This document shows positions 7,949 through 32,000 of a stretch of 32,000 nt of DNA, in pieces (positions within the stretch are counted from its first letter, which is position 1; every line of letters begins with the position of its first letter). Position numbers and translations under genes: made by a program. Location: assembly GCA_964203875.1 (NCBI GenBank), contig CAXNNS010000001.1, forward strand, positions 380,244-412,243. The letters run 5' to 3'. Under the pieces are notes generated by a model. The model did no database searches. It had not been told where the DNA came from and worked only from the letters and a program-made list of their open reading frames with translations. This DNA comes from Polynucleobacter sp. GTDB taxonomy: Bacteria > Pseudomonadota > Gammaproteobacteria > Burkholderiales > Burkholderiaceae.

Positions 7949-7977
7949 AAAAGAAAATAGCCCTACAAGTGGGCTAT
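7949..7977 (-). terminator. rho-independent terminator of tRNA-Phe
   Basis: On the minus strand, atagccc-acttgta-gggctat is followed by ttttctttt immediately after the tRNA CCA end. Confidence 0.6.
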
Positions 7978-11576: not shown

Positions 11577-11632
11577 CGCATTAACTACCCCCCTCAAAAA
11601 CCGCCTATACGCTACGATCTTGTGACATCACA

Positions 11633-11651
11633 GCGTCTAGTTGCTAGACGC
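11633..11651. repeat. island palindrome, copy 2
   Basis: gcgtctag-ttg-ctagacgc forms a perfect 8-bp stem. Confidence 0.7.
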
Positions 11652-11895
11652 TACGCAAACTGCATACAAGCTGGATTTGAGGGGTTATTTACAGTCTGTC
11701 GTCTAAATCCCACGATCTTCATGGGAACCACGGTTTTAAACACTAAATACTTGTTTGAAAAAGCACCAAAGAAAAGTGCAGTTTTCTTTAAGTCATTGAT
11801 TTATGGAAGATCTTTTTTACTTAAATTTCGGTCGACCTTTTCTACAAAAGAAAACACACTTAAGCATGCTTTTTATTTAAATAAGGAACAACAAA

Positions 11896-15069: not shown

Positions 15070-15098
15070 ATCAAGCGTCTAGGCTCTAGACGCTTGAT
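15070..15098. repeat. island palindrome, copy 3 (long-stem variant)
   Basis: atcaagcgtctag-gct-ctagacgcttgat forms a 13-bp perfect stem 8 nt after the stop codon of the ATPase gene. Confidence 0.65.
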
Positions 15099-15469: not shown

Positions 15470-15805
15470 ATGTACTCTAAAAATTATCTTAAACACGCAC
15501 ATAGTCATTGCTTTGCAAATCGCACGGCAATTGAAAAAAGTTTTCTATGCGGCTGTTTTGAATGCTGCTCTATATTTTCAGCCTTGCAAGTAAAAAGCTG
15601 GATAGAAGAAAGAAAAGACAGGGCTGATACTGGATTATGTCCATATTGCGATATTGATAGCATTATCGGGGACTACAGTCATGAAATTAATAAGTCTTTT
15701 TTAAGCGCAATGAATAAGGAATTTTTTAATAGCGATTTATCCTCAGAGTGTGTTTGTTTTGAAAGTTTTGAGGAATTATTTAATAGCTATCAATCGTTAG
15801 GCTAA
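15470..15805 (+). CDS. Cys-rich (zinc-binding-like) small protein
   Basis: I prefer the ATG at 15470 (MYSKNYLK). It has CGCFECC...CPYCDIDSIIG motifs, suggesting a zinc ribbon. Confidence 0.55.
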   Translation: MYSKNYLKHAHSHCFANRTAIEKSFLCGCFECCSIFSALQVKSWIEERKDRADTGLCPYCDIDSIIGDYSHEINKSFLSAMNKEFFNSDLSSECVCFESFEELFNSYQSLG

Positions 15806-17011
15806 TTTCTCAGCATTCATCATGGGAGTAAGCTTGGAATAATGTCGCTCAATCATGCCAACACTAGTGCCCATTTGCCTAGCAAGAGTATGGATATCAA
15901 CCCCTCTTGCTAAGGCGAATGTGGCATAGGTATGACGTAAGCTATATAAGGTTCTGTTCTGACCACCGCCATCTACCCGCATATTGCTACGAACCATTAA
16001 GTTACGAAAGATATTTTCCATGTTGCTAATTTGCTCGCCTGTTGGCAAACGGAATATCACCGCATCAACCTTAGCCTCAATCACTGCGTTGAGCCCCGAG
16101 TAAGGCAACTTCTGCCACTTCATTACTCGCTCCAATACCTTCACTACAGCAGTTCTCGCTATCAAATATCTAGGGCCCGTTTTACCTGACACCCAAATCC
16201 TTAAGTATTTCTTCTCCCCAATCCAATGCCATTGCAAATGTTTCCACCTGAGCGGCAACGCCTCCGTTCCATGCCGAACACCTGTATTAACTAAAAACTC
16301 GATGTAATAGGCGCATAGCGTTCTCATCAATGCCGTTCTATCTGTATAGCTACTCTTTTGCCAAGTTTCTGTATAGCTGAGTAACTCTTTGATTTCTTCT
16401 GCAGTAAAGGCGGGGCGGGGCTGGCTCTTTTTGCCCTTGCTATCTAGTAATGGCACGGCTTGATTCAATCCAATATAACCACGATCACGAGCTAGATTGA
16501 TCACACGGATATAGGCGCTTGCGTGATTACGTTTAGTACTCGCCATGGGGGTCTTGCCCATCTCGCTAATACGCCAAGCCTCAAAGTCACCTAATAATTC
16601 ATTAGTAATTTGACCGATCTCATAATGCCCAAAAAAGGGAATGAGATATTTGTTGATGGCAAAGGCATAGTCACGATAGATGCGCTTGCCCAGCTTGTTA
16701 TGTAAAGCCTGCGCCATATTGGCAAGCTCATCTAAAGCAATCTGCTTAAAGGTTTTGGTCACAACCGCCAAGCCAGCACCAACTTTGACTTTGACAGTTT
16801 CGTAAATGGCCATTGCTTGGGTTTGGGCTAAATCAGCATCTTCCGTAGCAGTAGAGGCTGCGTGCCATTGCCCATTGGGCAACTTAAAGCGGCATTGCCA
16901 CTTATTACTTTTGGCGCGCCGAAACAGGGTTAATTCACCACGCAACAAAGAGATTGTTTTGGGTGATGCTTGGTTTGTATTGGCAGGAAAGAGGTATTGA
17001 AAGTTTTGCAA
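15797..17011 (-). CDS. tyrosine recombinase / phage-type integrase (Int3)
   Basis: 404-aa ORF. The start is TTG and no in-frame ATG is nearby, so the start is uncertain. Catalytic residues lie in NTGVRHGT, LYSLRHTYATF and MIERHYSK. Confidence 0.85.
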   Translation of the reverse strand: MQNFQYLFPANTNQASPKTISLLRGELTLFRRAKSNKWQCRFKLPNGQWHAASTATEDADLAQTQAMAIYETVKVKVGAGLAVVTKTFKQIALDELANMAQALHNKLGKRIYRDYAFAINKYLIPFFGHYEIGQITNELLGDFEAWRISEMGKTPMASTKRNHASAYIRVINLARDRGYIGLNQAVPLLDSKGKKSQPRPAFTAEEIKELLSYTETWQKSSYTDRTALMRTLCAYYIEFLVNTGVRHGTEALPLRWKHLQWHWIGEKKYLRIWVSGKTGPRYLIARTAVVKVLERVMKWQKLPYSGLNAVIEAKVDAVIFRLPTGEQISNMENIFRNLMVRSNMRVDGGGQNRTLYSLRHTYATFALARGVDIHTLARQMGTSVGMIERHYSKLTPMMNAEKLA

Positions 17012-17016
17012 GTTCG

Positions 17017-17035
17017 GCGTCTAGTTACTGGACGC
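17017..17035. repeat. island palindrome, copy 4
   Basis: gcgtctagttactggacgc has one loop substitution relative to the consensus. It lies 6 nt upstream of the Int3 start. Confidence 0.7.
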
Positions 17036-17225
17036 TTGCTAGCTTAATTTCAGATTAGGATTTGGGCGACCAATAACTTATGGCTTTTTAGTTCGCCTAT
17101 TCCTCTGTTCAAACTTAATGGCCTCTTGTAGTAGAGCCTTTTGCTTCTCTTCTTCCTTGTGGCGCTTGATTAAGTCTTTGCCTGTAATGACTTGTTGATC
17201 CTTAAGCAAAGAGTCTAGCGTAGGC

Positions 17226-17438
17226 TTACTCTTCCCAGGGGAATCGTTCACGACTTAGCTCTTCCATAATTTCACTCTTACTCTGCGCAGACTTCTTCGA
17301 ACGATTTGTTCCATACTTTGCCCAATGTTCTCTATCCGCAATAATTTCATCCAGCTCATTCTTATAGTCTTCAGCAAAAGAGGTGAGTTTTTTGGGGTTC
17401 ATTCTCCCCACAAACTCTACGTTAGATTCGTCAGGCAT
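17226..17438 (-). CDS. small charged hypothetical protein, last gene of the Type ISP operon
   Basis: 70-aa ORF whose ATG lies 3 nt after the helicase stop codon. I recognise no family. Confidence 0.55.
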   Translation of the reverse strand: MPDESNVEFVGRMNPKKLTSFAEDYKNELDEIIADREHWAKYGTNRSKKSAQSKSEIMEELSRERFPWEE

Positions 17439-17441
17439 AAA

Positions 17442-18872
17442 TTAGTTAATTAAAGCCTCATAGAATCTTTTAATTGCAGGCTCGCAACGAACATCATTTA
17501 CTTTTATTGGGCGTTTTAGTCTTATTCCGCTCAAAGTCCGACATCTACTTAAGGCAACATAAACTTGCCCAGAGGCAAAAGCGCCTGCGGAGAGATCAAC
17601 ATTTACTTGATCCATTGTCTTGCCCTGGCTTTTGTGGATAGTGACGGCCCAAGCAAGCATCAAGGGAATTTGCTGATAGCTGCCAATTACTATTGGACTA
17701 ATTTTTCCAGTAGTTGAATCGAGTTCGTATTTGTAAGACTCCCACTTATGGCTATGCACATCAACAATGTTTGAATCAGTCTCAGTCTTAATTTCGACCC
17801 TCACAGACTCTCCAGTAAATTCCCTAACTATTCCTATAGTTCCATTTACCCATCGCTTTGGCATCGCCTTATCGTTGGCAGTAAACATTACGTGAGCCCC
17901 AACTTTTAACGTTAAATTCATTGGAGAGGGGAGATTGCGCTCATCCACATTAAATTTGCCATCAAGCAACCCTACAAACATAGTTGGAGAGTTTGAAATG
18001 GCATCCAACTCTTCTTCATTGATTGCATCCGCCCTAGCATTTGTAGTTGTAAGAGTTATGGCATAGGGGCTATTCAACTCCTGCTTTTCGAAGCACTCTC
18101 TGTTAAGAGTTTCAATGGCGACATCTATATCTTCATTAACTCGGATGTGATTGAGGATATCGGTAAATTCTCTATCTTTTTGACGGAAGATTTTTTGCAA
18201 TTCAATCATCGTCATTTCTTTGCCACTCAAGGCCATAGCGTTAAAGAAGTGGGCTTGCTCATAGCCCCTCTCTCTTAATAGCTCCATTTCGCTTGTATTA
18301 ATTACTGGCGGTAACTGGAAAAGATCACCAACAAACATAATCTGAACCCCGCCAAAAGGTTTGCCCTGTTGCGGACCATTCGCACGAAGAAACAGATCAA
18401 TAGCATCTACGATATCAGCCCTCACCATTGATATCTCATCAATGATTAATAAACGAATGCCCTCATACATTCGCCTATCTTTAACGACCTTAATGTCCTC
18501 TTCGGGGAAAATAATCCTCGGCGGCAAACGGAAGAAAGAGTGAATTGTTGCCCCCTTAACCTGAAGAGCGGCAACTCCAGTAGGCGCAACGACAACCACA
18601 TTACCAGCAACCTTGTCTCGTAAATACCCAATAAGTGTGGTTTTGCCCGTCCCCGCTTTACCGCTTACAAAGATAAAAGGATCGTGCGCATTAATGGCTT
18701 TAATTACCTCTTCGTAATCTGGAGTGACCTCGATCTCTTCGATGCTTTGAGTCGAGACTTCACTGGCGACGCCATGAGACTTAATCGGCGCCTTCAACGA
18801 AGCCTTTCTTAGCTCATCTACATTAGCCTTTTTTGAGCCAACAAATTCTTCAAGTTTCTTTAGGAAGCTCAT
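17442..18872 (-). CDS. SF1 PIF1/RecD-like DNA helicase
   Basis: 476-aa ORF with motifs GKAGTGKTT, VVVVAPTGVAAL, LLIIDEISMV, FVGDLFQLPPV, VTIHKSQGKT and YVALSRCR. Confidence 0.85.
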   Translation of the reverse strand: MSFLKKLEEFVGSKKANVDELRKASLKAPIKSHGVASEVSTQSIEEIEVTPDYEEVIKAINAHDPFIFVSGKAGTGKTTLIGYLRDKVAGNVVVVAPTGVAALQVKGATIHSFFRLPPRIIFPEEDIKVVKDRRMYEGIRLLIIDEISMVRADIVDAIDLFLRANGPQQGKPFGGVQIMFVGDLFQLPPVINTSEMELLRERGYEQAHFFNAMALSGKEMTMIELQKIFRQKDREFTDILNHIRVNEDIDVAIETLNRECFEKQELNSPYAITLTTTNARADAINEEELDAISNSPTMFVGLLDGKFNVDERNLPSPMNLTLKVGAHVMFTANDKAMPKRWVNGTIGIVREFTGESVRVEIKTETDSNIVDVHSHKWESYKYELDSTTGKISPIVIGSYQQIPLMLAWAVTIHKSQGKTMDQVNVDLSAGAFASGQVYVALSRCRTLSGIRLKRPIKVNDVRCEPAIKRFYEALIN

Positions 18873-18883
18873 TACCCAAAAGG

Positions 18884-21800
18884 CTATATGTCTAATTTTG
18901 GCAGGCTATTAACAATCTTCATTGTCTCTAAGCTAACCGTAATGACACGTTGATATAGCTTTAATGGATATGCTGGGTCATGCATTGTTTCTAAGGCCCA
19001 ATTATTTGCGTCATTCACAATGCCGCTATCTTTATGGGCTGTCACAGTCTGGCGCTCCATAACCCACTCCAAGGCTGGTCTTCCATTAATTATGTAATCA
19101 TAGGCTTCGAGTGGTATGCCTGCGATTGTAATTGCGTCGTTATAAATTACTTTCGTCTTATCGGACTTGCTTGCATACTTCATCTTACTTACTCTGTAGT
19201 GTGTATCCTTAGATAGAGTTTTATCAATAATCTCCACCGGATATGGATCAACAAATTCATATCCAATATGTAAGGCTGTTAGTTTTTTACCAGCTTCAAC
19301 AAAATCAATAAACGTAGAATATTTTTTTACGGCAGGTATGCGAGGAAGTTCCTTGCTTAAATTATCTGCGAATCTTTTTCTATAATCTTTGGAGTGCATT
19401 AATCCATACACGTAGTAGAAAAGCTGCTCTTTAGTAATAGACTCATTTGAATAATATTTTCTGAAATGATCTAGACCAGCATTCGTTATCCCATCTATTT
19501 CTTGGTAGCCATTTATCAAATTCTCCTCTGAATCATGAAGCCCAAAAAGATCTGCGTGAGAATTTTGATGATTTTCAGATTTTTCAATACGTTTATAAAG
19601 CTTGAAAGGGAAACATTGCGCGCCAGCCTCTAACATATTTAAATCGGGCAATGTATCTGACATGATTACAGATATTCCATTCCGACTACCAATTCCATTT
19701 ACGCATATAACTAAATTTTTAGCCTCTGGATACGGAAATATCGAAGGCATTTGATACCTTCGCTGATTCAAGTTTTTATTGAAATAAACCCATTGCTTTG
19801 AAAAGGGTCTATACATAGATTTTGTTATTGATTCTGGCTGAAATTCAATCTCAGTTTGTCGCGCTAAATCAGCCTTCAACGTATCAGTCCAGCTGATTTT
19901 TGTTGTATCTATATCAATAAATTTATTGATATCTGGGAGGCTCTTCTTATCTAGTCCTTTAGTTTCAATCTTAAGCTTGTTAAGCTGACTCCTATAGAAC
20001 TCCAACATTTTTAGTATATTTTTTTCTAATTGAAGTCTCGAAGAGTTATAGCACCATGCATCTCTATTTGTAGCAACTCCTAGAGAAAAATTTTCAAACA
20101 TTGCAACTTTAGAGGGATCTTTTTTATTTCCCAAACAAATATATTCAGCAAATGAATCGTCACGCTTATTAATCCAGTCGCCATATTTATCAGGCACAAC
20201 TTCATCCCAGGCTTCGCTAGCAGTAATCCCTTCTAAACTATTAAAGCTTCTAATTTTTTCTAATTTCTCATCAAGAGAAAGATCATTTCCAATATCGTGA
20301 TAGTAGATTTTTCCGTGCTCTATAGCTTCATCATTCTTAACCAAGATTGATATTGCTATGCCGGTCATACTTCCGCTATCAAATATATTTTGCCCTTCAC
20401 CAGCTGCGCCCTTGCTGAGCATATTTTTTCTGATATCACCTCGTAAATTAAAAATATAGAGGTTTGAAAATTCTTCAGACAAGCATTTTCTCATTCCATC
20501 CATTGCAGGCTTTTCAATAAAACTACTGCCTGAGACATAACCTACAACGCCTTTAGTTTTTAATCTATCACTTGCCCAACGGATCGCTCGAATATAACTA
20601 TCGTCCAAATTTGCTTTGAAAGTTGCAGTCGAATGCTCTTTATACGTTTCACGAATGCGCCTGTCTAGGTATGGATATTCAGTATTCTGGTTATTATCAT
20701 TCTCACTTTTTTGACCCGCAGAATAAGGGGGGTTGCCCATAATTACTCTTATATCCAGGGCCTTTTGCTTTTTTCTTCTTCCACTGTTATCGCTTATCTC
20801 AGGAGATGCTAAGTCCTCCTTCTCATAAAGAGCAAAAGTATCAGTTAAACAAATTCCATCAAATGGAACATATTCACCGCCAACTGTTGCGTGATAAACC
20901 TGCTCAATGTTGATTGCTGCGATGTAATAAGCAAGTAAAACAATTTCATTTGCATGTATCTCATTCTGATACTTGTAGGCTAATTGCTCTTTGCTTATTA
21001 GTCCACTCTGAATTAGCCGAGTTATAAATGTTCCGGTTCCTGTAAATGGGTCCAAGATATGAACATTCTTATCCCCCAATGCCTGATTAAATTCGTGTCG
21101 CAATACATCATTAATGCTATGAATGATGAAATCTACCACTTCTACGGGGGTGTAAACGATTCCCAACTTTTCCGTCATTTTAGGAAATGCATTCCTAAAA
21201 AACTTATCGTAAAGCTCAACAATAATTTTTTGTTTGGCTCCAAGATCATCAATGCCTTGAGCTCGCATCTTCACACTTGCATAAAACTTTTCTAAAGTAT
21301 CAACTTCCTTGTCTAGGCTATGCTCATTAAGAGCATTTAGAACTCCTTGCATAGCCTTGGATACAGGGTTATGTTGCGCAAAACTATAGCCCTCAAAAAG
21401 CGCATCAAATACTGGTTTAGTAATAATGTGCTGAGCCAGCATTTCAATAGCCTCTTCACGGCTAATGCTGTCATTAAGATCTTCTTTTAGCTCTTTTAGA
21501 AATTTATTGAATGCCTTTATCTCAGTTTTATTTTCAGCGTTATCTAATATTGCAGTAATACGACTTATGTGAGTCTGAGCAATCTTTGCAATATCTTTCG
21601 CCCAATCGTCCCAATAAAAACGGTTGCCACATTTCTGCACCACCTTAGCCATAATGGCGCGCTCAATCTCACCAATTTCAATATTGAGCTCTGCCTGCTT
21701 AGGATCTTGGTAATTTTGAGGCGATGAACCAATCACGCTGCCTTTAGCCTTTTTGATCTTTGGCTTGCCTTTACCAGCCTCTGCACCGCCGCCTTCAGGT

Positions 21801-23854
21801 TTCTTTTTAGGACTTATTTTGTCTGTGATCGCAATCACTTCCATCTTGGATCTATCTTGACCAGCTAAATCCAACTTATTAATCATTGCATCAAAGCGGT
21901 CATCATGGGAGCGCAGAGCCTGCAAAACCTCCCAAACAACCTTGTAACTCTTGTTGTCATTCAACGCTTCCTCAGGACTCATGCCTGTTGGAATAACAAC
22001 TGGAAGAATTACATAACCAAGCTGTTTTTTGCTATCTTTTGGTTTACGCATTACACGACCAACAGACTGCACAACATCAACTTGTGAATTTCTTGGGGTT
22101 AGAAATAAAACAGCGTCCAAAGCAGGAACATCAACGCCCTCAGATAGGCAGCGGACATTACTCAGAACACGGCAAGTATTTTCAGGAAGTTCGGCTTTTA
22201 ACCAATCGAGCTTTTCTTCTTTTTGTGCAGCATTCATGCTGCCATCAACGTGAGCAGCTTCACAAATTAACTGACTAACTGCATCCTCATGCTCTGGATT
22301 TTCTTTGATTAAAGCCGCGCGATACTCATCAACTACTTTTTGGAACATGCCTGCAATATTTTTACTACTGACCTTATGGGTCTTGGCGCCTTTATTAATC
22401 TCAATAACTTGGCAGAAAGCAACAGCTCTCTTCATGGGCTCTGGATCAAGCTCTAAATCTACTTGTGTATCTTGCTTGGATAGGGCTCTCCAACACCCAA
22501 CAATTTTTGCAGCATCATCTACACGTAAGCTATTATTTTCGTCCGCCAATACTTTTTGTAGATTTTTGCTGATGTGGTCTTCGCTGACGGTAAGAACAAT
22601 AACCTTGTAATCAACCAATATCCCACGCTTAACCGCCTCAGAGAAAGAGAGTGTATGTAACGTCTTTCCATACTGCTCTTCATTGTCCATGTCATATAGA
22701 ACAATGCTGTCATTCTCAGCCTTAGCTTTAGCTGCAACACCATAAACTCTTGGTGTTGCTGTCATATAGATGCGTTTTTTAGATTTAATGAAATCTGCGT
22801 TGTGTATTTTTACAAAGGCAGATTCATCTTCTCCATCGTAAATAGCGCCAGTTGTCCTATGCGCCTCATCACAAATGATTAAATCAAAGCCTGGTAACTC
22901 ATTTTTCTTTTGCGCATCCGAAATTACTTGAATTGAATGGTAGGTTGAGAAGATGACATTCAGATGTTCATCATCTTTACGTTTATTAAATTCGTTGGCT
23001 AAAGCTTTTGGATTGGTTGTAGCGGGATAACGAAGTTCATGCACCAACATCTGATAGTCATCATCTTTGTCGCGCTTCTTACCAACTTCGCTATCAGAAC
23101 AGACAGCAAAGCTATGCATCGGCAGGGTGGACTCCTGAGTCCACTCAGTGAGCGTCTGCGACAACAGTGAAAGTGATGGAACTAGAAATAGAACTCTTCC
23201 GCCTTTCCCTGCAACTTCTTCAGCCAATCTCAAGGCTGTAAAAGTTTTACCAGTGCCACAAGCCATAATCAGCTTGCCTCTGTCAGCGGTTTCTAGTCCA
23301 TAACTCACATTCTGAATGGCATTACGCTGATAATCTCTAATGCTTTTTGGCTCTTGCAGAACAACTTCTTTTTTCTTAAAAGTTTCTGCCCAATTTATTT
23401 TGCTATTCTCGAGGTCGCTGAGCGTTATCTTCTGCGTCGGGGTATTTTGCCCTTGCATCGCATCGTCTACGTGATGGCTGACATTATCTGTTGTCAAAAT
23501 TAACAAACGTTGTGTAAAGGGTTTTTTACCTGATGCTGTAAAAAACGAATCAATGTGTCGTTTGTAAAGTGTAGTTTCAGAATCGTAAAATTTTGCCTGA
23601 ATTGCGTGATACTCATTGGTCTGTTTTGTTCTCGCAACTAAATCAATACCAGTATCTGTACCAGGATCAGAATTGCCATGCTCTATCCAATATTTACGCC
23701 AGTCTTCCCACAACCAAACAGCCTCATATAGATCTTTATATTTCGGCTCATTTTCAAAATAGATCTTTGAGAGATTTTCAAAATAATTACCTTTCTCCCT
23801 TTCTGATTGTGAGGAGGCACGAAAGGTATCTAAAACATCTCTTAATGCGGTCAT
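18884..23854 (-). CDS. Type ISP-like single-polypeptide restriction-modification enzyme (nuclease, SF2 motor, N6-adenine MTase, TRD)
   Basis: 1656-aa ORF. It has an Mrr/PD-(D/E)xK-like N-terminus (GIDLVA...IQAKFY). The SF2 motor motifs are MACGTGKT, IICDEAHR, YMTATPR, LSEGVDVP and QSVGRVMR. The gamma-class methyltransferase motifs are ILDPFTGTGTF and IMGNPPYS. A C-terminal specificity-like region contains YRPFSKQWVYF. Confidence 0.85.
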   Translation of the reverse strand: MTALRDVLDTFRASSQSEREKGNYFENLSKIYFENEPKYKDLYEAVWLWEDWRKYWIEHGNSDPGTDTGIDLVARTKQTNEYHAIQAKFYDSETTLYKRHIDSFFTASGKKPFTQRLLILTTDNVSHHVDDAMQGQNTPTQKITLSDLENSKINWAETFKKKEVVLQEPKSIRDYQRNAIQNVSYGLETADRGKLIMACGTGKTFTALRLAEEVAGKGGRVLFLVPSLSLLSQTLTEWTQESTLPMHSFAVCSDSEVGKKRDKDDDYQMLVHELRYPATTNPKALANEFNKRKDDEHLNVIFSTYHSIQVISDAQKKNELPGFDLIICDEAHRTTGAIYDGEDESAFVKIHNADFIKSKKRIYMTATPRVYGVAAKAKAENDSIVLYDMDNEEQYGKTLHTLSFSEAVKRGILVDYKVIVLTVSEDHISKNLQKVLADENNSLRVDDAAKIVGCWRALSKQDTQVDLELDPEPMKRAVAFCQVIEINKGAKTHKVSSKNIAGMFQKVVDEYRAALIKENPEHEDAVSQLICEAAHVDGSMNAAQKEEKLDWLKAELPENTCRVLSNVRCLSEGVDVPALDAVLFLTPRNSQVDVVQSVGRVMRKPKDSKKQLGYVILPVVIPTGMSPEEALNDNKSYKVVWEVLQALRSHDDRFDAMINKLDLAGQDRSKMEVIAITDKISPKKKPEGGGAEAGKGKPKIKKAKGSVIGSSPQNYQDPKQAELNIEIGEIERAIMAKVVQKCGNRFYWDDWAKDIAKIAQTHISRITAILDNAENKTEIKAFNKFLKELKEDLNDSISREEAIEMLAQHIITKPVFDALFEGYSFAQHNPVSKAMQGVLNALNEHSLDKEVDTLEKFYASVKMRAQGIDDLGAKQKIIVELYDKFFRNAFPKMTEKLGIVYTPVEVVDFIIHSINDVLRHEFNQALGDKNVHILDPFTGTGTFITRLIQSGLISKEQLAYKYQNEIHANEIVLLAYYIAAINIEQVYHATVGGEYVPFDGICLTDTFALYEKEDLASPEISDNSGRRKKQKALDIRVIMGNPPYSAGQKSENDNNQNTEYPYLDRRIRETYKEHSTATFKANLDDSYIRAIRWASDRLKTKGVVGYVSGSSFIEKPAMDGMRKCLSEEFSNLYIFNLRGDIRKNMLSKGAAGEGQNIFDSGSMTGIAISILVKNDEAIEHGKIYYHDIGNDLSLDEKLEKIRSFNSLEGITASEAWDEVVPDKYGDWINKRDDSFAEYICLGNKKDPSKVAMFENFSLGVATNRDAWCYNSSRLQLEKNILKMLEFYRSQLNKLKIETKGLDKKSLPDINKFIDIDTTKISWTDTLKADLARQTEIEFQPESITKSMYRPFSKQWVYFNKNLNQRRYQMPSIFPYPEAKNLVICVNGIGSRNGISVIMSDTLPDLNMLEAGAQCFPFKLYKRIEKSENHQNSHADLFGLHDSEENLINGYQEIDGITNAGLDHFRKYYSNESITKEQLFYYVYGLMHSKDYRKRFADNLSKELPRIPAVKKYSTFIDFVEAGKKLTALHIGYEFVDPYPVEIIDKTLSKDTHYRVSKMKYASKSDKTKVIYNDAITIAGIPLEAYDYIINGRPALEWVMERQTVTAHKDSGIVNDANNWALETMHDPAYPLKLYQRVITVSLETMKIVNSLPKLDI

Positions 23855-23928
23855 ATTTGGCTATTTTGTCAATTTAAGTATTCCATTAGATTACCATGCG
23901 ACCTTATCAAATTACCCTTTACTTACAA

Positions 23929-23947
23929 GCGTCTAGTTGCTGGACGC
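23929..23947. repeat. island palindrome, copy 5 (consensus)
   Basis: gcgtctagttgctggacgc sits in the divergent region between the Type ISP gene and the 24049 gene. Confidence 0.7.
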
Positions 23948-24048
23948 TCATACAAAATTAGCAATTTATTCAACATTTTTTAACAGGCTCACTTAATGAG
24001 CCTATAACCCTCTAATCTCCTTCTCAAGACCACATTTAGGAGATAGTC

Positions 24049-24363
24049 ATGAAATACCTACTCACCATATTTCTGCTTGCCCAAGCAGCCCTATACGCAC
24101 AAAAGAGCTTTGCTCAAGTTACTAATTTAGATAACTCGCCCTACAACATGCAAAACAGCCAATACAACATGGATAACTCACCCTACAACATGCGCAATAG
24201 TCCATACAACATGGATAACAGCGCATATAACGCCAGCGCCAAGAATGGGGTTTATGACAACTCAGGCAATCGAGTCGGCTATGAAGTTAAGGCGCCCAGT
24301 GGCGTAACCAACTACTTTGACAACTCAGGCAATCGAATTGGCTACACACCCTGGAAGAGATAG
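24049..24363 (+). CDS. secreted Asn/Tyr-rich repeat protein
   Basis: 104-aa ORF with a signal peptide (MKYLLTIFLLAQAALYAQKSFAQ) and an AGGAG sequence upstream. It has five heptad repeats (x-NSPYNM), encoded by 5 x 21 bp at 24130-24234, plus a duplicated DNSGNR(V/I)GY motif. Confidence 0.65.
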   Translation: MKYLLTIFLLAQAALYAQKSFAQVTNLDNSPYNMQNSQYNMDNSPYNMRNSPYNMDNSAYNASAKNGVYDNSGNRVGYEVKAPSGVTNYFDNSGNRIGYTPWKR

Positions 24364-24367
24364 CGAC

Positions 24368-24616
24368 ATGCTTTTTAGCGCAATCATTCTTAGTTTTGTG
24401 ATGCCTATGCAAGTTTCTATGGGCAATCCTAAATTTGAGCCCTTCATTGTTAAAGCAACAGTCGACGCAGCCGTTCTTATTGGCCTTCCATCTTCGAAAG
24501 CAGCAAGGAAATATGCCCTACAAGCGCAAAAGCCTGAATTCTTAATGGTAGAAGCGCTTTTGGTATCAGAACCCGTTAACTGGAGAAGGCTGTACTTTAG
24601 AAAGCTTTTCTCTTGA
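24368..24616 (+). CDS. possible small hypothetical protein
   Basis: 82-aa ORF from the ATG at 24368. No clear Shine-Dalgarno sequence and weak coding evidence. Confidence 0.3.
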   Translation: MLFSAIILSFVMPMQVSMGNPKFEPFIVKATVDAAVLIGLPSSKAARKYALQAQKPEFLMVEALLVSEPVNWRRLYFRKLFS

Positions 24617-24677
24617 TAGGCTCATTTTGTGAGCCAGTACAGTAACATTCAAGCATCTAAGTTAAAAGGAAGCCGCC

Positions 24678-25646
24678 ATGGGTGATGTGGAGCGCTTACA
24701 CAAAATTAAGTACATGATTCAGGCACGTCAATGCGTTCCGCTGAATGACTTTCTCAATGAACTCGAAATATCAAAAGCGACATTCAAAAGAGATCTTGAA
24801 TATCTACGAAGCAGAATGAATGCCTCCATTGTTTACGACCGATTCAAGGGTGGTTATTGCTTTGATGGACAAGTCGTTGGCGAAAAGATTGAGTTACCTG
24901 GTTTATGGTTTTCCGAAAAAGAAGCTACTGCACTAGTTCTCATGCAACACCTTCTATCAGGCTTAGATAAGGGGGGCTTAATTGAACCCCACATTGCTCC
25001 GCTTACCTCAATCATTGATGGCATTCTTGGACAGAGCAATACGCCAGCCAAAGAGCTACGCAAAAGACTAAAAGTATTTGGGATGTCTGCCCGTAAAGGT
25101 TCTATTGAGAACTTCGAGGAAATAGGAAGCGCACTACTAAAGCGCAACCGATTACAAATTACATACTATGCCCGCGGCACCAATGAAACTACTGAGCGTG
25201 AAACATCACCTCAACGGCTAATCTTTTATAGAGACAACTGGTACTTAGATGCTTACTGCCATTTGCGAAAAGACTTAAGAAGCTTTGCTCTTGATGGCAT
25301 CAGCAAAGCAATGATTACGAATACAAAGTCAGAAGAGATTTCTGAAAAACAATTGCATGAACACTTTGCTGAAAGTTATGGAATTTTCTCAGGCAAAGCG
25401 AATCAAAGGGCTAAGCTAAAGTTCTCTCCCGAGAAAGCAAGATGGGTAAGTAGTGAAACATGGCATGGTCAACAAGTGGGCACTTTCGATAAAAAAGGCA
25501 ATTACCTTTTGGAGTTTGATTACAACCAAGATCCTGAGCTTGTCATGGATATATTGAAATATGGGTCGGGGGTTGAGGTTTTAGCGCCAGCTAGCTTACG
25601 CAAGTGCGTTAAAGATGAGCTTGCCAATGCATTGGGTAATTATTGA
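24678..25646 (+). CDS. WYL-domain transcriptional regulator (BrxR/CapW-like architecture)
   Basis: 322-aa ORF with an N-terminal wHTH (ISKATFKRDLEYLRS), a central WYL domain (FYRDNWYLDAYCH) and a C-terminal extension. AAGGAAG lies upstream of the ATG. Confidence 0.85.
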   Translation: MGDVERLHKIKYMIQARQCVPLNDFLNELEISKATFKRDLEYLRSRMNASIVYDRFKGGYCFDGQVVGEKIELPGLWFSEKEATALVLMQHLLSGLDKGGLIEPHIAPLTSIIDGILGQSNTPAKELRKRLKVFGMSARKGSIENFEEIGSALLKRNRLQITYYARGTNETTERETSPQRLIFYRDNWYLDAYCHLRKDLRSFALDGISKAMITNTKSEEISEKQLHEHFAESYGIFSGKANQRAKLKFSPEKARWVSSETWHGQQVGTFDKKGNYLLEFDYNQDPELVMDILKYGSGVEVLAPASLRKCVKDELANALGNY

Positions 25647-25665
25647 GCGTCTAGTTGCTGGACGC
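25647..25665. repeat. island palindrome, copy 6 (consensus)
   Basis: gcgtctagttgctggacgc starts on the base after the WYL gene's stop codon. Confidence 0.7.
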
Positions 25666-25700
25666 TAAATACTTATTACGAGATGGAATTAGAATAAATC

Positions 25701-26405
25701 ATGCCTATCTCCATAGATATTAATTTTGACTTTAGGTCAGATACTCCGCCAGGAAAGGATCCCGATAGCTATAGCTCAACACTTCGCTCTTACCATCGGC
25801 GCCTTTGGAGCAAACCTCTGCCTAATGGCAAGCCGTTTGAGCTAATTGACTCCAAAGAAGGGGCTTATCTTTATCACCACTCTGAGTTAGGTGAATTTTT
25901 CTTATCCAGTGACTCTGCAATACACAGCTTCAGCAAGTGGGCAAGCATGGCTCACATCATTAGCCAATTTAGGAATGGTGAGGTTGAGGCATTTAAATCT
26001 CTTGGATATACGATCGGCGGCATGATAATTTTTCCAGGAAACCGAATAGATGGGAAGGCGACTATCAATGGGGCTAGAGGTTTTCATCCTCTAATAAGGG
26101 ATCGAATTGACCTAACCCTGGAATGCATAAGATGCCATTACAAAAATGAAAGCAGCCCACTTGAAGATACGCTGTCACGCTATAGTGATTTCTTCGCCCT
26201 GTTTGATAGCTTCAAGGGGTATGTGGACTTCTTCTTATTGAATGACTTAGTGAGTAAAGACTATTCAGAGATTGGGTTTTTCATGCCTTTTGAGAATTTT
26301 AAAACTCCTGCCGTTCCCAAAACTTTTGACTCCTACTGCGGCTACAAAGACTTAGCCATGAGCTTTGTTAATAAAAGAAATCAGCGCATTCTTTCATCCA
26401 TATAG
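25701..26405 (+). CDS. hypothetical 234-aa protein downstream of the WYL regulator
   Basis: Clean ATG ORF 54 nt after the WYL gene on the same strand. No signal peptide or transmembrane segment. I see no catalytic motif I can name. Confidence 0.7.
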   Translation: MPISIDINFDFRSDTPPGKDPDSYSSTLRSYHRRLWSKPLPNGKPFELIDSKEGAYLYHHSELGEFFLSSDSAIHSFSKWASMAHIISQFRNGEVEAFKSLGYTIGGMIIFPGNRIDGKATINGARGFHPLIRDRIDLTLECIRCHYKNESSPLEDTLSRYSDFFALFDSFKGYVDFFLLNDLVSKDYSEIGFFMPFENFKTPAVPKTFDSYCGYKDLAMSFVNKRNQRILSSI

Positions 26406-26471
26406 TCTCTAAGGCTCATTTTATGAGCCCTTGATAGTGGATTATTTAGATCATTAATAGGGAGAAATTCT

Positions 26472-26756
26472 ATGAAAGTTTCCGCCTGGATTCTTTGCTT
26501 GTTTGCATTACCTGCCTTTGCTCAATCAGACTACCATGCCAATCGCTACTCTGGACGAGCCACAGAAATAACTCCAAGCAATCAAGCTGGCTTTAATACA
26601 GTCAATGGATATTTCTACAATTCAAAAACTAATACCTACTACAAAGGCAAAAACATCAATCGTGATGCAGGCGCGCAACCAAGCCCTCAAGGAAGCCTAG
26701 CGTTTACCTATGATCGCAATCGGTATGCGCCAACCAACCTCAGCATTCAACATTAA
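26472..26756 (+). CDS. small secreted Asn/Tyr-rich protein
   Basis: 94-aa ORF with a signal peptide (MKVSAWILCLFALPAFAQ) and a GGGAGA sequence upstream. Confidence 0.6.
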   Translation: MKVSAWILCLFALPAFAQSDYHANRYSGRATEITPSNQAGFNTVNGYFYNSKTNTYYKGKNINRDAGAQPSPQGSLAFTYDRNRYAPTNLSIQH

Positions 26757-26789
26757 TTCTTGTTCCATCTGGAACAGACAATAACTAAT

Positions 26790-26820
26790 CCTCTATCTAT
26801 CGAGAGCTAATAGATAGAGG
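26790..26820. terminator. bidirectional terminator hairpin between convergent genes
   Basis: cctctatctat-cgagagcta-atagatagagg forms an 11-bp perfect stem between 26472..26756 (+) and 26840..27229 (-). Confidence 0.55.
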
Positions 26821-26839: not shown

Positions 26840-27229
26840 TTATTGGTGATATCTATATTCCTGAGTTTTGCCACCATAGCCATAGGCCGTCGCTCGTACA
26901 TTTGCCACATATACATAGCTTTCCTCATGTAAGTTCCCTAGTATTTTCTCAAATCCTGCAAAGGCTTCTTTGATGTATTGAGCTTTTTCATCTTTGGTAT
27001 TGGTTTCATCCGTAACCTTGATATCAAAGTAAAAGCTGTTTTTATTCTGCTCACTTAATAACTTACCGCCAACGATCCAGCAGTCCCTATCTATATAGTC
27101 AATCGCAATAGCAGTAACTTCTCGTTTCTTGTTCAAGATTCGCGTTGTTATGTCTAAGAGCAAATCAGTAACCTGCTTAGTAGTTTCAACACTCTTTGTT
27201 CCGCTTATCTTTACATTCAATATGGGCAT
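26840..27229 (-). CDS. tautomerase-superfamily protein (long, about 128-aa form)
   Basis: 129-aa ORF beginning MPILNVKISG, which gives the catalytic Pro1 after Met removal. Length and pattern fit the tautomerase family. Confidence 0.65.
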   Translation of the reverse strand: MPILNVKISGTKSVETTKQVTDLLLDITTRILNKKREVTAIAIDYIDRDCWIVGGKLLSEQNKNSFYFDIKVTDETNTKDEKAQYIKEAFAGFEKILGNLHEESYVYVANVRATAYGYGGKTQEYRYHQ

Positions 27230-27242
27230 TTGTTTCTCCTAA

Positions 27243-27261
27243 TTAGTTAGCTATACAACTA
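27243..27261. promoter_or_regulatory. putative MarR operator copy upstream of the tautomerase gene
   Basis: ttagttagctatacaacta is near-identical to the box at 27717-27736. It contains the half-sites TTAGTT/AACTA. Confidence 0.45.
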
Positions 27262-27283
27262 TTAATTCAAAAAAATAGGGGCA

Positions 27284-27697
27284 CTACAAAATCTCACTAA
27301 TTCCCCTTAACTTACCTACGACATCTAAAAACTCATCTGAGCCCAAGAGCCTCTTAAACTTCTTGGTGACTTCTCCGCTGGCCGCATTCAAACCATCTTT
27401 CATGGCCTTTGCCTTTCTTGTGGGATGAACTTCAATCTCACGAGCATCGTCAGGCGATGACCTTCTTTCAATTAGCCCTAGCTTCTCAAGTCCATCCAAT
27501 CCTCTAGAGGCTGTAGGTTTAGTGATATTCATTTCCTTTGCCAAAGCATTTTGATAGGACTGTGGCTTTTCCAATATCACTCTCAACATGAATGCCTGTG
27601 ATGGCGTCAAACCAAATGGCTTAAACGCTATAGTCCATTCCCGCTCTAGCTTACGAGCCAATGAAGTGGTATTGAAATAGAGGCATTGTTCAAACAT
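27284..27697 (-). CDS. MarR-family transcriptional regulator
   Basis: 137-aa ORF with a winged HTH (LAKEMNITKPTASRGLDGLEKLGLIERR). Confidence 0.85.
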   Translation of the reverse strand: MFEQCLYFNTTSLARKLEREWTIAFKPFGLTPSQAFMLRVILEKPQSYQNALAKEMNITKPTASRGLDGLEKLGLIERRSSPDDAREIEVHPTRKAKAMKDGLNAASGEVTKKFKRLLGSDEFLDVVGKLRGISEIL

Positions 27698-28250: not shown

Positions 28251-28439
28251 ATGAAGACTGAAGATATTGGAACGATTTGCCCAGCTTGCGGAAGGGCTAA
28301 TGACTGCCAAATAGCTGGTGAGAAGAAGTGTTGGTGTTTTGATGTACCTGTAAACAAGGAGAAACTCGAGCAAGCACTTAAGGACAAGTCAAAAGATCAA
28401 TGCTTGTGCAAGGATTGCCTGAAGAAGTTAAGCGTCTAA
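28251..28439 (+). CDS. cysteine-rich CWC-type small protein
   Basis: I prefer the internal ATG at 28251 (MKTEDIGTICPACGRANDCQIAGEKKCWCFD...CLCKDCL). The N-terminal part of the 123-aa track ORF overlaps the membrane-peptide frame and looks non-coding. Confidence 0.6.
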   Translation: MKTEDIGTICPACGRANDCQIAGEKKCWCFDVPVNKEKLEQALKDKSKDQCLCKDCLKKLSV

Positions 28440-28454
28440 TTACGCGACGCTTAA
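28428..28454. repeat. island palindrome, copy 7 (divergent variant)
   Basis: ttaagcgtc-taattacgc-gacgcttaa shares the GCGTC/GACGC core and overlaps the stop codon of the CWC gene. Confidence 0.35.
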
Positions 28455-28853: not shown

Positions 28854-30155
28854 ATGTTAATAGAATTTAGCGTAGCAAATTTCAAATCTATTCTTGAACG
28901 CCAAACCCTGAGCATGGTGGCCAGCGCAGACTCTGAACATGCTGAAAAAAATGTAATCGAACTCCCCGGCGAAACAATTAAATATCTGAAATCGGCGGTT
29001 GTTTACGGACCAAATGCTGCGGGCAAGAGCAACCTCTTAAAGGCCATGCTTGTATTACAACAACTTATCCTTCATTCCGCCTCCTCCCAAGAAGGCATTC
29101 CAATGATTGGCATTACACCTTTTCTACTGGATGGGAATATTCCAGACGAGCCTTCTGAATTCAACATCATCTTCATAGCAAACGATGGCGTGAAATATGA
29201 ATATCATTTTTCTGCAACACCAAAAGCGGTTGAAAAAGAGTGGATGGTTGCCTATCCGAATGGCAGGCCGCAGCGTTGGTTTGAGCGCGAACTAAATAAA
29301 ACAACCGGCAAATACGAGTGGTGGTTTGGCTCGAAGTTTAAAGGCGAAAAGGCAGAGAGAAAAGTTTGGCAAGACTTCACCAGAAATAATTCTTTGTTTT
29401 TTTCTACCGCAGTTCAGCTAAACAACGAACAACTTAAAACTCCTTTTGGGTGGATAGCCAATCAACTTATTGTCATAACATCGGGTATTGACCTTAACCC
29501 ATGGCTCAGCATTAATCTTATTAAGAATAATGAAGGCCATAAAATTCTTGATTACTTGCAAGCCGCTGATATTGGAATTGACGGGATTGATATTAAAGAA
29601 GAGGATTTGCCCCCTCAAGCCCATTTCATAGGCGGCAATCCTTTTATGCAGGCGATTGGCGCAATGAACTTCAACCATGGCGCACCTGAAGATGCTGCGG
29701 GACAAAAACCAAAAATGATTAGGGTTACAACTACGCACAAAAATACAGAAACCAATGAGGTGGTTCAGTTAAGCATTGAGGATGAATCCGAAGGCACTAG
29801 AAAGCTATTTAATCTAACTGGCGGCTGGATTAGATCGCTTGATATTGGAGCAACCTTATTGGTGGATGAACTTGAAAGAAGTCTTCATCCAAAGATAACC
29901 CGATTTTTAGTTGAGCTTTTTCATAGTAATAAAAATCAAAGCAATGCTCAATTAATTTTTACAACGCACGATACAAATCTTTTGGACACCTCTTTATTGA
30001 GAAGAGATCAAATTTGGTTTGTCGAGAAAAACAATGGCAAGGCAACACATCTTTATTCCTTGCTCGATTACAACCCGCGCAAAGAAGAGGCTTTGGAGCG
30101 AGGATACCTAAAAGGCAGGTATGGGGCAGTTCCTGTTGTGGGGGAAATTAATTAA
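28854..30155 (+). CDS. AAA_15/AAA_21-type ATPase (AbiLi/RloA-like)
   Basis: 433-aa ORF with Walker A GPNAAGKSN, Walker B LLVDELERSLHP and FTTHDTNLLD. It has the ABC/OLD-like ATPase architecture. Confidence 0.85.
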   Translation: MLIEFSVANFKSILERQTLSMVASADSEHAEKNVIELPGETIKYLKSAVVYGPNAAGKSNLLKAMLVLQQLILHSASSQEGIPMIGITPFLLDGNIPDEPSEFNIIFIANDGVKYEYHFSATPKAVEKEWMVAYPNGRPQRWFERELNKTTGKYEWWFGSKFKGEKAERKVWQDFTRNNSLFFSTAVQLNNEQLKTPFGWIANQLIVITSGIDLNPWLSINLIKNNEGHKILDYLQAADIGIDGIDIKEEDLPPQAHFIGGNPFMQAIGAMNFNHGAPEDAAGQKPKMIRVTTTHKNTETNEVVQLSIEDESEGTRKLFNLTGGWIRSLDIGATLLVDELERSLHPKITRFLVELFHSNKNQSNAQLIFTTHDTNLLDTSLLRRDQIWFVEKNNGKATHLYSLLDYNPRKEEALERGYLKGRYGAVPVVGEIN

Positions 30156-30799
30156 TGCCATCTCGTAGGCTATCAACACTAAGAAGCGAAAGATCGTTTT
30201 CTAGAAAGGCTGGAAAGACTCCACCTAAAGAGGTAACCTTGATTGTTTGCGAGGGCGAAACAGAGACTAAATATCTAAAAACTCTTTGTCAAACCCTTAG
30301 ACTTACTACCGCCAGCATATATGTTTGTGATAACGGCACCGATTCTGCTCCAATTAATTTGGTGAACAGAGCAGAAAGGCTCAATCTAACCAACGATGGC
30401 TACGACCATATTTATTGCGTGTTTGATAAAGATGTTCATGAAAGTTTCAACAGGGCCAGAGAAAGAATACAAGCCTTAAACAAACGCAGCAGAAAACCCC
30501 TTCCTATTAAAGAGGCTATTAGCATCCCATCATTTGAGCTATGGATATTGCTCCACTATGAACAAACCGATCGCTCATTTAATAACTCTGCCGAGGTGGT
30601 TAGATATATTACAAATCAAAATCACATACGAGCTTATAAAAAAGCTGATGATTCAATTTGTCAGGAACTAGTCGAGAAACTTGAAACCGCGATTGCTAAT
30701 GCTGTTTGGCTTGAAAAACGCGGTCACACTAAAAATGAAAATCCGATGACGAATGTTCACAAACTTGTAGAACACATAAAAGAAATTTCTATTAAATAA
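30155..30799 (+). CDS. RloB-like (TOPRIM-like) protein (AbiLii-like)
   Basis: 214-aa ORF whose start overlaps the ATPase stop codon (TAATG). Motifs are LIVCEGETETKYL, YCVFDKDVH and PSFELWILLHY. Confidence 0.8.
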   Translation: MPSRRLSTLRSERSFSRKAGKTPPKEVTLIVCEGETETKYLKTLCQTLRLTTASIYVCDNGTDSAPINLVNRAERLNLTNDGYDHIYCVFDKDVHESFNRARERIQALNKRSRKPLPIKEAISIPSFELWILLHYEQTDRSFNNSAEVVRYITNQNHIRAYKKADDSICQELVEKLETAIANAVWLEKRGHTKNENPMTNVHKLVEHIKEISIK

Positions 30800-31212: not shown

Positions 31213-32000
31213 TCATTGCAACAACATGGGTTGATTCTGCAATAGTTTGGGTACTTGGGTTTGGGGTGCTGGTGGCCTATAACCTAATGCACTATGGGGC
31301 CTAACATGGTTATAGTGCTTGACCCACTCCCCCACGATGATCTGGGCTTCTTTTAGGCTATAAAAGATCTCCCCATCCAGTAAGTTATCCCTGAAGGTGC
31401 CGTTAAAGCTTTCACAAAAGCCATTCTCCCAAGGACTGCCTGGAGTAATGTAGGCAGTTTTGACGCCAATGCCGGCAAGCCACTTGCGCAGGTCTTTGGC
31501 AATAAATTCTGGACCGTTATCCGAGCGTATGTACTCTGGGATACCGTTTTCAATCATGGCATTAGCCAGTTGTTCAATGACTTGGATTGATCCAATTCTT
31601 CTGGCGCAGAAGATCGTTAAACACTTTCTACTGAACTCATCAATTATCGTGAGCATGCGGATCTTGCCACCATAGGCATCTCTGATAAAGACAAAATCGT
31701 AACTCCAAACATGATTGAGGTGAGTAGCCCTCAGGCGCATACAACTACCATCGGAGAGCCAGAGTCTGCCTCTAGGAGGCTGCTTTTGCGGGATCTTTAG
31801 ACCTTCCTCTCGCCAGATGCGAGCTACTTTTGCGGTAGTTGCCTGACCCCAACCGCTATTACGCATCATGCCCGCAATAAATCGATAACCGTAACGGCCA
31901 TAAGTGCTGGCCATGCGGATAACTTCAGCCCTCAGCGGCTTTTCATCATCTCTGGGCAGCGGCATGTACCGATACGCTGCTCTGGATAGCCCCACTAAAC
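31213..32000 (-). CDS. IS3-family transposase OrfB (rve/DDE domain); N-terminal part runs off the window
   Basis: The frame stays open to base 32000. Motifs are HVWSYDFVF, IRSDNGPEF, SPWENGFCESFNGTFRD and YNHVRPHSALGYRPP. The IS end lies somewhere in 31020-31212 and cannot be fixed without the other end. Confidence 0.85.
   Translation of the reverse strand, partial: LVGLSRAAYRYMPLPRDDEKPLRAEVIRMASTYGRYGYRFIAGMMRNSGWGQATTAKVARIWREEGLKIPQKQPPRGRLWLSDGSCMRLRATHLNHVWSYDFVFIRDAYGGKIRMLTIIDEFSRKCLTIFCARRIGSIQVIEQLANAMIENGIPEYIRSDNGPEFIAKDLRKWLAGIGVKTAYITPGSPWENGFCESFNGTFRDNLLDGEIFYSLKEAQIIVGEWVKHYNHVRPHSALGYRPPAPQTQVPKLLQNQPMLLQ

Follow-up and report, generated by a model that had tools for sequence, protein, structure and literature searches.

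A WYL regulator, a DUF6994 gene and their closest described relatives

PafBC and DriD control DNA-damage responses and are, by sequence, the closest solved relatives of the regulator described here, with which they share the same domain order. The architecture, a winged helix-turn-helix (wHTH) followed by WYL and WCX domains, is also common to this regulator and to BrxR and CapW (Picton et al. 2022, PMC9122601). Regulators of the BrxR type head diverse defence genes, and the operator of BrxR, the R-box, was defined experimentally as inverted repeats with a 5-bp spacer located between promoter and gene (PMC9122601). Among nucleases, the type IV enzymes GmrSD and BrxU, in which DUF262 is fused to an HNH domain of the DUF1524 family, are encoded by a single gene and require no methyltransferase partner. 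Here, the gene of a WYL regulator and the gene that follows it, encoding a member of the Pfam family DUF6994 (PF22507), were analysed in a stretch of 32,000 nt from a Polynucleobacter sp. genome (contig CAXNNS010000001.1); this full stretch is called the window, and all coordinates are window positions unless a locus is named.

The explanation that we favour, with even confidence and no more, is that the two genes are neighbours through cassette shuffling at the edge of a hypervariable genomic island and do not form a dedicated regulator-effector pair. The elements on which the argument turns are the following.

24678..25646, plus strand: wHTH-WYL-WCX regulator of the YafY family, 322 aa (Pfam and PADLOC)
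25646..25666: AGCGTC-type palindrome AGCGTCTAGTTGCTGGACGCT, overlapping the WYL stop codon; left edge of the variable cargo
25672..26759, plus strand: cassette of 1,088 nt with DUF6994, p94 and a palindrome between them; missing in L104, a locus that is otherwise collinear
25701..26405, plus strand: DUF6994 (PF22507) protein, 234 aa, beginning MPISIDINFDFRSDTPPGKDPDSY (Pfam)
26761..26776: palindrome TGTTCCATCTGGAACA, the right edge of the cassette, read from the sequence

The sequence-only reading had taken the regulator and the 234-aa protein for a single-effector defence module lying between a Type ISP operon and an AbiL-like pair. Its description of the locus was accurate: the two open reading frames (ORFs) are present as claimed, on the same strand and 54 nt apart, a palindrome lies between them, one of five copies in the window, and both flanks were borne out by domain matches. 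The idea of a specific WYL-effector module fared less well, as the neighbours of DUF6994 are rarely WYL regulators and the WYL orthologues rarely carry DUF6994.

In the regulator, Pfam recognizes WYL at residues 144-211 (E 1.4e-20) and WCX at residues 243-319 (E 4.5e-15), together with a weak, below-cutoff match to HTH_DeoR/HTH_11 at residues 6-52, and the WYL models of PADLOC match it at E 2.5e-40. It had been called BrxR/CapW-like, which is right for its wHTH-WYL-WCX architecture and less so for its sequence, the solved structure closest to it being PafBC (6sj9, E 1.2e-14), followed by 7u02, 7tzv and 8tp8 (about 1e-5), BrxR (3e-5) and CapW (9e-4). PafBC differs in being a fused two-module protein of Actinobacteria, whereas the window regulator is a single wHTH-WYL-WCX unit, and the DNA-damage context of PafBC and DriD has no counterpart in the window, which contains no recA, lexA or repair regulon. 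Similar to BrxR and CapW, the regulator heads a variable, partly defensive cargo on its own strand; unlike these regulators of mobile defence systems, it is a lineage-conserved chromosomal gene. Its cluster at 90% identity counts 321 proteins, among them YafY-family members from several Polynucleobacter strains; the cluster of the DUF6994 protein has 2.

Neighbours of DUF6994 and of the WYL regulator across genomes

The 234-aa protein had been described as containing no motif that could be named. This was mistaken, since residues 5-230 match PF22507 over its full length, profile positions 1-226 of 226, at E 1.1e-94 and with 316.9 bits, the gathering cutoff being 27, and all 99 aligned relatives likewise match the model. 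It is an ordinary member of the family, with the same invariant residues and nothing that sets it apart. Clustering the family at 90% identity gives 4,628 clusters, and clustering at 50% gives 1,593; nearly all members are stand-alone proteins of about 235 aa, and the window member is about 70% identical to a homologue from Planctomycetota and 51-67% identical to homologues from Actinomycetota, Chloroflexota, Pelagibacteraceae, SAR86 and candidate-phyla-radiation bacteria. NCBIfam and PHROG gave no match to the protein, and a literature search for DUF6994 or PF22507 found the family discussed only in the Pfam 2024 paper (PMC11701544). A few fusions look real, namely an N-terminal DUF6508 in P0161 and P0193 and an unannotated C-terminal extension of about 110-150 aa shared by P0125 and P0131; as clues to function they were set aside, both partners being without known function.

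The genomic surroundings of DUF6994 were surveyed in 80 genomes from many phyla, found by a scan with a 30-sequence alignment and including Pelagibacteraceae, SAR86, candidate-phyla-radiation bacteria, Actinomycetota and Chloroflexota, and 130 nearest neighbours of at least 100 aa were collected around the gene. BLAST clustering of neighbouring proteins in the 80 genomes gave no family recurring beyond closely related genomes. Pfam and PADLOC scans found no Pfam family in more than 2 of the 130, hence there can be at most one case with a WYL regulator as nearest large neighbour. A WYL regulator lies within 10 kb of DUF6994 in 2 of the 80 genomes: L003, found with the window regulator as query, and a distant one in L081, found with the regulator of L094. 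An enrichment of DUF6994 homologues beside WYL regulators, for which a survey had been suggested together with the module, was thus not seen.

The gene itself bears a signature of transfer. Its GC content is on average 5.9 points lower than that of its flanks, more than 3 points lower in 44 of 57 loci and never more than 3 points higher, and the dip is limited to the approximately 700 nt of the gene (in L002, 0.35 against 0.57). Amino-acid constraints account for part of this dip and not for cases such as L002. DUF6994 is scarce on mobile elements, being found on 4 of 72,556 plasmids, in 1 of 50,697 phages and at five loci of IMG/VR viral contigs, and the possibility that it is mainly a phage or plasmid gene was rejected on account of this rarity. 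DUF6994 is a solitary, horizontally transferred single-gene unit, found far more often without any WYL regulator. In two actinobacterial genomes, fragmentary DUF6994-like ORFs lie 2-3 kb past the intact gene (L064 12941-13663 and L067 7890-8977) and may be decayed tandem paralogues.

The reciprocal survey started from the regulator and covered 80 metagenomic loci with orthologues 71-98% identical to it, of which 52 extend at least 800 nt past the WYL gene and were used for the downstream count. The left flank is conserved, with homologues of the small protein p104 in 38 and of p99 in 22 of the 80 loci; p99 is also present in L082. On the other side, the gene at position +1 is one of more than 25 unrelated genes, and this cargo often begins 2-12 nt past the WYL stop codon. 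Most +1 genes are orphans, others being DUF6152, NT5C, DUF4760 and an AAA_15/DUF3696 ATPase. L142 is the one locus among the 52 with DUF6994, and as the gene is convergent with WYL there, co-transcription of the two is impossible.

Closer relatives of the window DUF6994 (68-92% identity) display the following arrangements.

L082-84 (92%): WYL, a 183-aa DUF4365-like gene, DUF6994, p93
L086 (80%): WYL about 7.7 kb upstream; DUF6994, p94, sigma70_r4, UvrD, RNase_T
L092 (80%): DUF6994, p94, sigma70_r4, UvrD, RNase_T; no WYL within the 8 kb upstream examined
L093: WYL about 6 kb upstream; DUF5655, a 189-aa gene, DUF6994, p94
L094: WYL, 6-nt gap, DUF6994; then MmeI, a DEAD helicase and T5orf172
L088 and L097: DUF5655 with a NucS-like N-terminus, 8-nt gap, DUF6994; L097 adds Type ISP, Mrr and an integrase
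L090 (Planctomycetota): housekeeping genes around DUF6994
L003 (Methylophilaceae): DUF6994 4 kb upstream of WYL; a DNA methylase after WYL

Direct adjacency of WYL and DUF6994 on the same strand is found only in the window, in its near-identical copy L001 and in L094. Members of the subclade with 68% or more identity to the query are found in about 11 distinct contexts, 6 of which have a WYL orthologue within about 8 kb, and the surroundings include Type ISP, MmeI, Mrr, T5orf172, SLFN_AlbA_2 and PD-(D/E)xK-type nucleases. The subclade is thus often found in restriction- and nuclease-rich surroundings, adjacency to WYL being one arrangement among many.

Several of these relatives without an adjacent WYL carry, directly upstream of DUF6994 and separated from it by 8 nt, a protein of about 300 aa with a weak NucS_C-like (PD-(D/E)xK) N-terminus and a DUF5655 C-terminus (L088 7087-7992 and L097 6081-6992); the same type of protein is encoded at L093 5515-6429. 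It may be an alternative partner of DUF6994. A literature search for DUF5655 returned only an unrelated genome note.

Comparison of whole loci delimits the exchanged segment. In L082, a 183-aa gene (7414-7965) with a PD-(D/E)xK-like motif (GVDLLV...LQVK) and a sub-threshold DUF4365 match stands between WYL and DUF6994, and the AGCGTC-type palindrome comes after this extra gene; in the DNA of the window, precisely this gene is missing between the WYL stop codon and the palindrome. In L103, whose WYL protein is 98% identical to that of the window, homology to the window ends at 25666 and the cargo is entirely different. Alignment of L104 with the window by blastn covers 23987-25671 and resumes at 26760-26804, which identifies window positions 25672-26759 as a cassette of 1,088 nt between two palindromes; in L104, TGTTCCATCTGGAACA is found about 10 nt past its AGCGTC-type palindrome. 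Homologues of p94, the small protein at the end of the cassette, lie 3′ of DUF6994 in 10 related loci and occur in none of the 80 WYL-first loci, indicating that p94 travels with DUF6994 and not with WYL.

A candidate operator and the variable cargo slot

The sequence-only reading had listed GGCTCA-N5-TGAGCC hairpins upstream of the WYL gene and downstream of the 234-aa gene. Both are present (24619 and 26413), together with a third copy that it had not listed, giving three in the window where 0.01 are expected. These palindromes and the small genes beside them are as follows.

23986..24002: palindrome GGCTCACTTAATGAGCC, candidate WYL operator located where the Type ISP gene and p104 diverge; the p104 start codon is 46 nt beyond its end
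24049..24363, plus strand: p104, small protein with a signal peptide and NSPYNM repeats; part of the conserved left flank of WYL; no Pfam family
24317..24616, plus strand: p99 ORF, with a TTG start as listed; conserved left flank of WYL; a shorter version of 82 aa is called in relatives
24619..24635: palindrome GGCTCATTTTGTGAGCC, candidate autoregulatory operator; the WYL start codon is 42 nt beyond its end
26413..26429: palindrome GGCTCATTTTATGAGCC, 7 nt past the DUF6994 stop codon; candidate WYL operator for p94, the start codon of which is 42 nt beyond its end
26472..26756, plus strand: p94, small signal-peptide protein that accompanies DUF6994 in the lineage; no Pfam family

No site of this type lies directly upstream of DUF6994. 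Across orthologous loci, the core GCTCA-N5-(T/C)GAGC is found 39-65 nt (mostly 41-50) 5′ of the WYL start codon in 63 of 72, and it is retained in 62 of 70 distinct upstream sequences in which loop and flanks vary. The outermost R..Y positions display no covariation, contrary to what a stem would require. In L003 and L094, whose WYL proteins are 43-45% identical to that of the window, two tandem copies of the core precede the WYL gene. The distal site is also found in relatives, at 5366 in L082 and, in WYL-first loci, as a rule some 630-700 nt 5′ of the site next to WYL, and the position of the site 3′ of DUF6994 is kept in L082-85, L086/87/92 and L093. Density follows the regulator: the WYL-first loci (511 kb) contain 124 sites, the related DUF-first loci (181 kb) 22 and the unrelated loci (1.19 Mb) a single one, and the motif is absent from the related loci without WYL, L088, L090 and L097. 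Some sites lie between divergent genes (window 23986, L093 4676 and 5′ of WYL in L003 and L094), where no terminator is needed.

GGCTCA-N5-TGAGCC is probably the operator of the WYL regulator. Similar to the R-box of BrxR, it has a 5-bp spacer and lies between the likely promoter region and the gene, with arms of 6 bp where those of the R-box measure 11 bp; unlike in BrxR and CapW, the motif also precedes genes of small secreted proteins. The signal-peptide proteins p104 and p94, and another in L103 (about 2040-2200), are each preceded at a similar distance by a candidate operator, and such small secreted proteins may make up most of the WYL regulon. Within the DUF6994 coding sequence, GGCTCACATCATTAGCC (25949-25965) is a copy with one mismatch, which is perfect in L086, L087 and L092 (GGCTCACATAATGAGCC) at the same codons; it may be due to chance or be an internal regulatory site.

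The second palindrome type, a 21-bp sequence of the form AGCGTCTAG-N3-CTAGACGCT, has five copies in the window (11632-11652, 15074-15094, 23928-23948, 25646-25666 and 28431-28451) against 0.00 expected. They are mostly located at or just past stop codons, and two mark points of whole-gene insertion or deletion among relatives. These AGCGTC palindromes could act in termination, belong to REP-like elements or serve as recombination sites at which cassettes are exchanged. An integron-like cassette array was also considered, since palindromes delimit the single cassettes; the palindromes, at 16-21 bp, are far below the length of attC, and the integrase of the window matches only the generic Phage_integrase model.

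On the favoured explanation, a freshwater betaproteobacterium with a small genome would carry this locus at the margin of a hypervariable island, built around a conserved core in the order palindrome, p104, p99, palindrome, WYL. A WYL dimer would bind the 17-bp RGCTCA-N5-TGAGCY palindrome and thereby control its own promoter and those of small secreted-protein genes such as p104 and p94. Past the WYL stop codon and the AGCGTC-type hairpin, a cargo slot receives a different gene in almost every strain and is filled in the window strain by the 1.09-kb cassette of DUF6994 and p94. Variable cargo would flank the core on both sides, restriction-type and on the minus strand to the left (integrase to p104), and in the slot after WYL to the right. 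DUF6994 would be an autonomous single-gene unit that moves alone between phyla. As it lies on the same strand just downstream of WYL, control by read-through is possible, and any control by the regulator would occur only in this way, through WYL transcripts that cross a hairpin of -13.9 kcal/mol, co-transcription being presumed.

A second variable slot, the segment from the integrase to p104 (15797-23854), was compared with L082, L104, L106, L108 and L110: it holds Type ISP in the window, L108 and L110; L082 has T5orf172/ResIII and an Eco57I-type methylase there, and further loci have other large genes on the minus strand. The remaining features of the island in the window are listed below.

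15797-17011, minus strand: integrase
17442-18872, minus strand: PIF1-like helicase
18884-23854, minus strand: Type ISP enzyme with Type_ISP_C, ISP_coupler, Mrr_cat_2 and ResIII domains
26840-27697, minus strand: pair of a tautomerase-family protein (129 aa) and a MarR regulator (137 aa)
28854-30799, plus strand: AbiLi/AbiLii pair (AAA_21 and RloB)
31213-31995, minus strand: IS3-type transposase

The locus thus lies within a defence-rich island. The helicase, a PIF1/RecD-like protein of 476 aa, has its gene beside the integrase, immediately 3′ of the Type ISP gene and in the same orientation. Two PADLOC candidate models, PDC-S68 and PDC-M16A, match the helicase, and it may assist the Type ISP enzyme or act separately in defence. 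The tautomerase/MarR pair, situated between the cassette and the AbiL genes, recurs in one WYL-first locus, L127.

Proposed activity of DUF6994 and alternative explanations

The AlphaFold2 model of the 234-aa protein is very confident (pLDDT 97.2, pTM 0.93). By visual inspection, the Pfam authors predicted for DUF6994 a beta-beta-alpha HNH-like core with an omega loop, akin to type IV enzymes such as BrxU, in which the catalytic histidine is replaced by alanine and two aspartates are invariant (PMC11701544). In the 99-sequence alignment, D22, L28, S70, D71, P112, N123, R135, D137, F168 and F171 are invariant and D20, H32, W36, R126, G127, D134, E141, Y147 and R226 nearly so. No histidine is invariant in this alignment: H32 lies in the N-terminal helix, and H59 and H60, in the strand 57-61, are not kept across the family. 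The constellation of acidic, asparagine and arginine residues D20, D22, S70-D71, N123, R126, D134-R135-x-D137 and E141 suggests a metal-dependent enzyme. With moderate to low confidence, DUF6994 is proposed to be a self-sufficient, metal-dependent nucleic-acid enzyme that resembles type IV restriction enzymes and acts without a partner, and a role in defence is plausible as a candidate. Unlike GmrSD and BrxU, it is a single 234-aa domain without DUF262, in which Pfam finds DUF6994 only.

The profile and structure searches that had been suggested for the 234-aa protein succeeded in part, yielding the Pfam family and no significant Foldseek match. Several results weigh against the favoured explanation, including the view of DUF6994 as a nuclease-like enzyme with a role in defence. 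Foldseek against the Protein Data Bank (PDB) gave nothing below E 0.6, with BrxU (7p9k and 7p9m) at ranks 2 and 8 (best E 0.66, TM 0.21-0.23), which is not significant. A profile search of PDB sequences with DUF6994 found nothing, and none of the 99 members matches the HNH-type or DUF1524 models of Pfam at E up to 5. Since these structure, profile and Pfam searches lent it no support, the HNH-like assignment rests on the inspection by the Pfam authors. No defence model of PADLOC-DB v2.0.0 matches the protein at E up to 1. The nearest neighbours in the 80 genomes are mostly housekeeping genes (GluRS, ribonucleotide reductase, LysR regulators, thioesterases), as far as naive ORF calls in the high-GC loci allow; defensive genes are few among the 130 (one type I restriction-modification set, AbiEii and MrcB_N, counts that stand without a background rate), and a family-wide enrichment in defence islands is therefore not demonstrated. 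The cargo of the WYL slot is also largely not recognizably defensive (DUF6152, NT5C, orphans), and the island may be a general flexible region. Finally, binding of the regulator to the palindrome is inferred from co-occurrence and position only. Some other hits were discarded: many Foldseek matches to PI3K and kinases were treated as noise (rmsd 16-20 Å, probability at most 0.06), a single-sequence search of the PDB returned antibodies by chance, and the BFVD viral library gave only matches with E above 0.3.

Against this background, the main rival of the favoured explanation is that DUF6994 is a non-defence accessory enzyme of DNA repair, nucleotide or modified-base metabolism or stress, residing in a flexible region, which we consider rather unlikely. 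Consistent with it are the mostly housekeeping and metabolic neighbours, including those of L090, the presence of the gene in streamlined genomes (Pelagibacteraceae, Nanopelagicales and candidate-phyla-radiation bacteria), a very high cross-phyla identity of about 55-73% that would be unusual for defence proteins engaged in an arms race, the lack of a PADLOC or PHROG match, repair-type neighbours in relatives (Adenine_glyco, UvrD, RNase_T, VRR_NUC) and the closeness of the regulator to PafBC and DriD. However, the distribution is sporadic and carries the signature of single-gene transfer, close relatives are repeatedly found amid restriction and nuclease genes, the Pfam authors predicted a nuclease-like fold (PMC11701544), and no context examined links the gene to a metabolic pathway. 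The module of the sequence-only reading, in which WYL would repress DUF6994 until infection and DUF6994 would be a toxic or antiviral effector, appears distinctly less probable still. The same-strand spacing of 54 nt speaks for it, as do the independent pair in L094 (a 6-nt gap, two operator copies 5′ of WYL, ahead of MmeI, helicase and T5orf172), the nearby WYL orthologues in the subclade and the habit of BrxR-type regulators of heading diverse defence genes (PMC9122601). Both surveys argue in the other direction, with WYL nearest in at most 1 of 130 cases and within 10 kb in 2 of 80 genomes, and with DUF6994 in a single, convergent case among 52 WYL-first loci. Moreover, the closest relatives have intervening genes (the 183-aa gene, or 6-8 kb), L103 combines a nearly identical WYL with other cargo, DUF6994 has no operator directly 5′ of it, and its regulator-free spread as a single gene argues against toxicity on its own.

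The palindromes could also be generic hairpins (terminators, mRNA stabilizers or REP-like elements) unrelated to WYL, an explanation to which we give little credence as a whole. All of them fold stably, at -9.8 to -13.9 kcal/mol (the RNA of 25646-25666 reaches -13.9 kcal/mol, with a z of -4.5), the GGCTCA sites at 24619 and 26413 lie 2-7 nt past stop codons, and the AGCGTC type recurs at 11632, 15074 and 28431, usually just past stop codons. For the AGCGTC type a generic hairpin is quite possible. For the GGCTCA type, the sites between divergent genes, a core that is conserved, despite drifting loop and flanks, at a spacing from the start codon that hardly varies, the outermost positions without stem-like covariation and the restriction of the motif to loci with WYL all argue otherwise. 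A terminator scan of the window reported none at these sites, for which reason intrinsic terminators were rejected, and no T-run follows the GGCTCA sites. Cassette shuffling next to a lineage-conserved, probably autoregulated WYL gene stays the explanation that we favour. The protein family and the regulator class were known already, and their pairing is incidental; new are the candidate operator, the architecture of the cargo slot and the spread of DUF6994 across phyla as a single gene.

In a bolder version, which is speculative and on the unlikely side, DUF6994 would represent a hitherto undescribed family of enzymes that act alone against phages or plasmids, with a non-canonical, histidine-less metal site on a fold that has no solved relative. 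Compact and harmless enough to travel as a single gene of 0.7 kb, it would have reached more than 15 phyla, among them candidate-phyla-radiation bacteria and plankton with streamlined genomes (Pelagibacter, SAR86 and Polynucleobacter). One cassette among many in a WYL-headed slot with a conserved 17-bp operator, it would be part of a regulated cassette array for flexible genes in Polynucleobacter-like genomes.

For annotation, the 234-aa protein is to be named DUF6994, and an adjacent WYL regulator alone is insufficient evidence of a regulator-effector pair. The WYL gene offers a clean natural study system, with a lineage-conserved regulator, a candidate RGCTCA-N5-TGAGCY operator in about 70 diverged promoters and a strain-variable slot. 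DUF6994, with a confident predicted fold and no solved relative, is a useful target for biochemistry; should it turn out to act in defence, it would stand out by its unusually small size, its independence of partners and its very wide transfer, which reaches even the most streamlined free-living bacteria.

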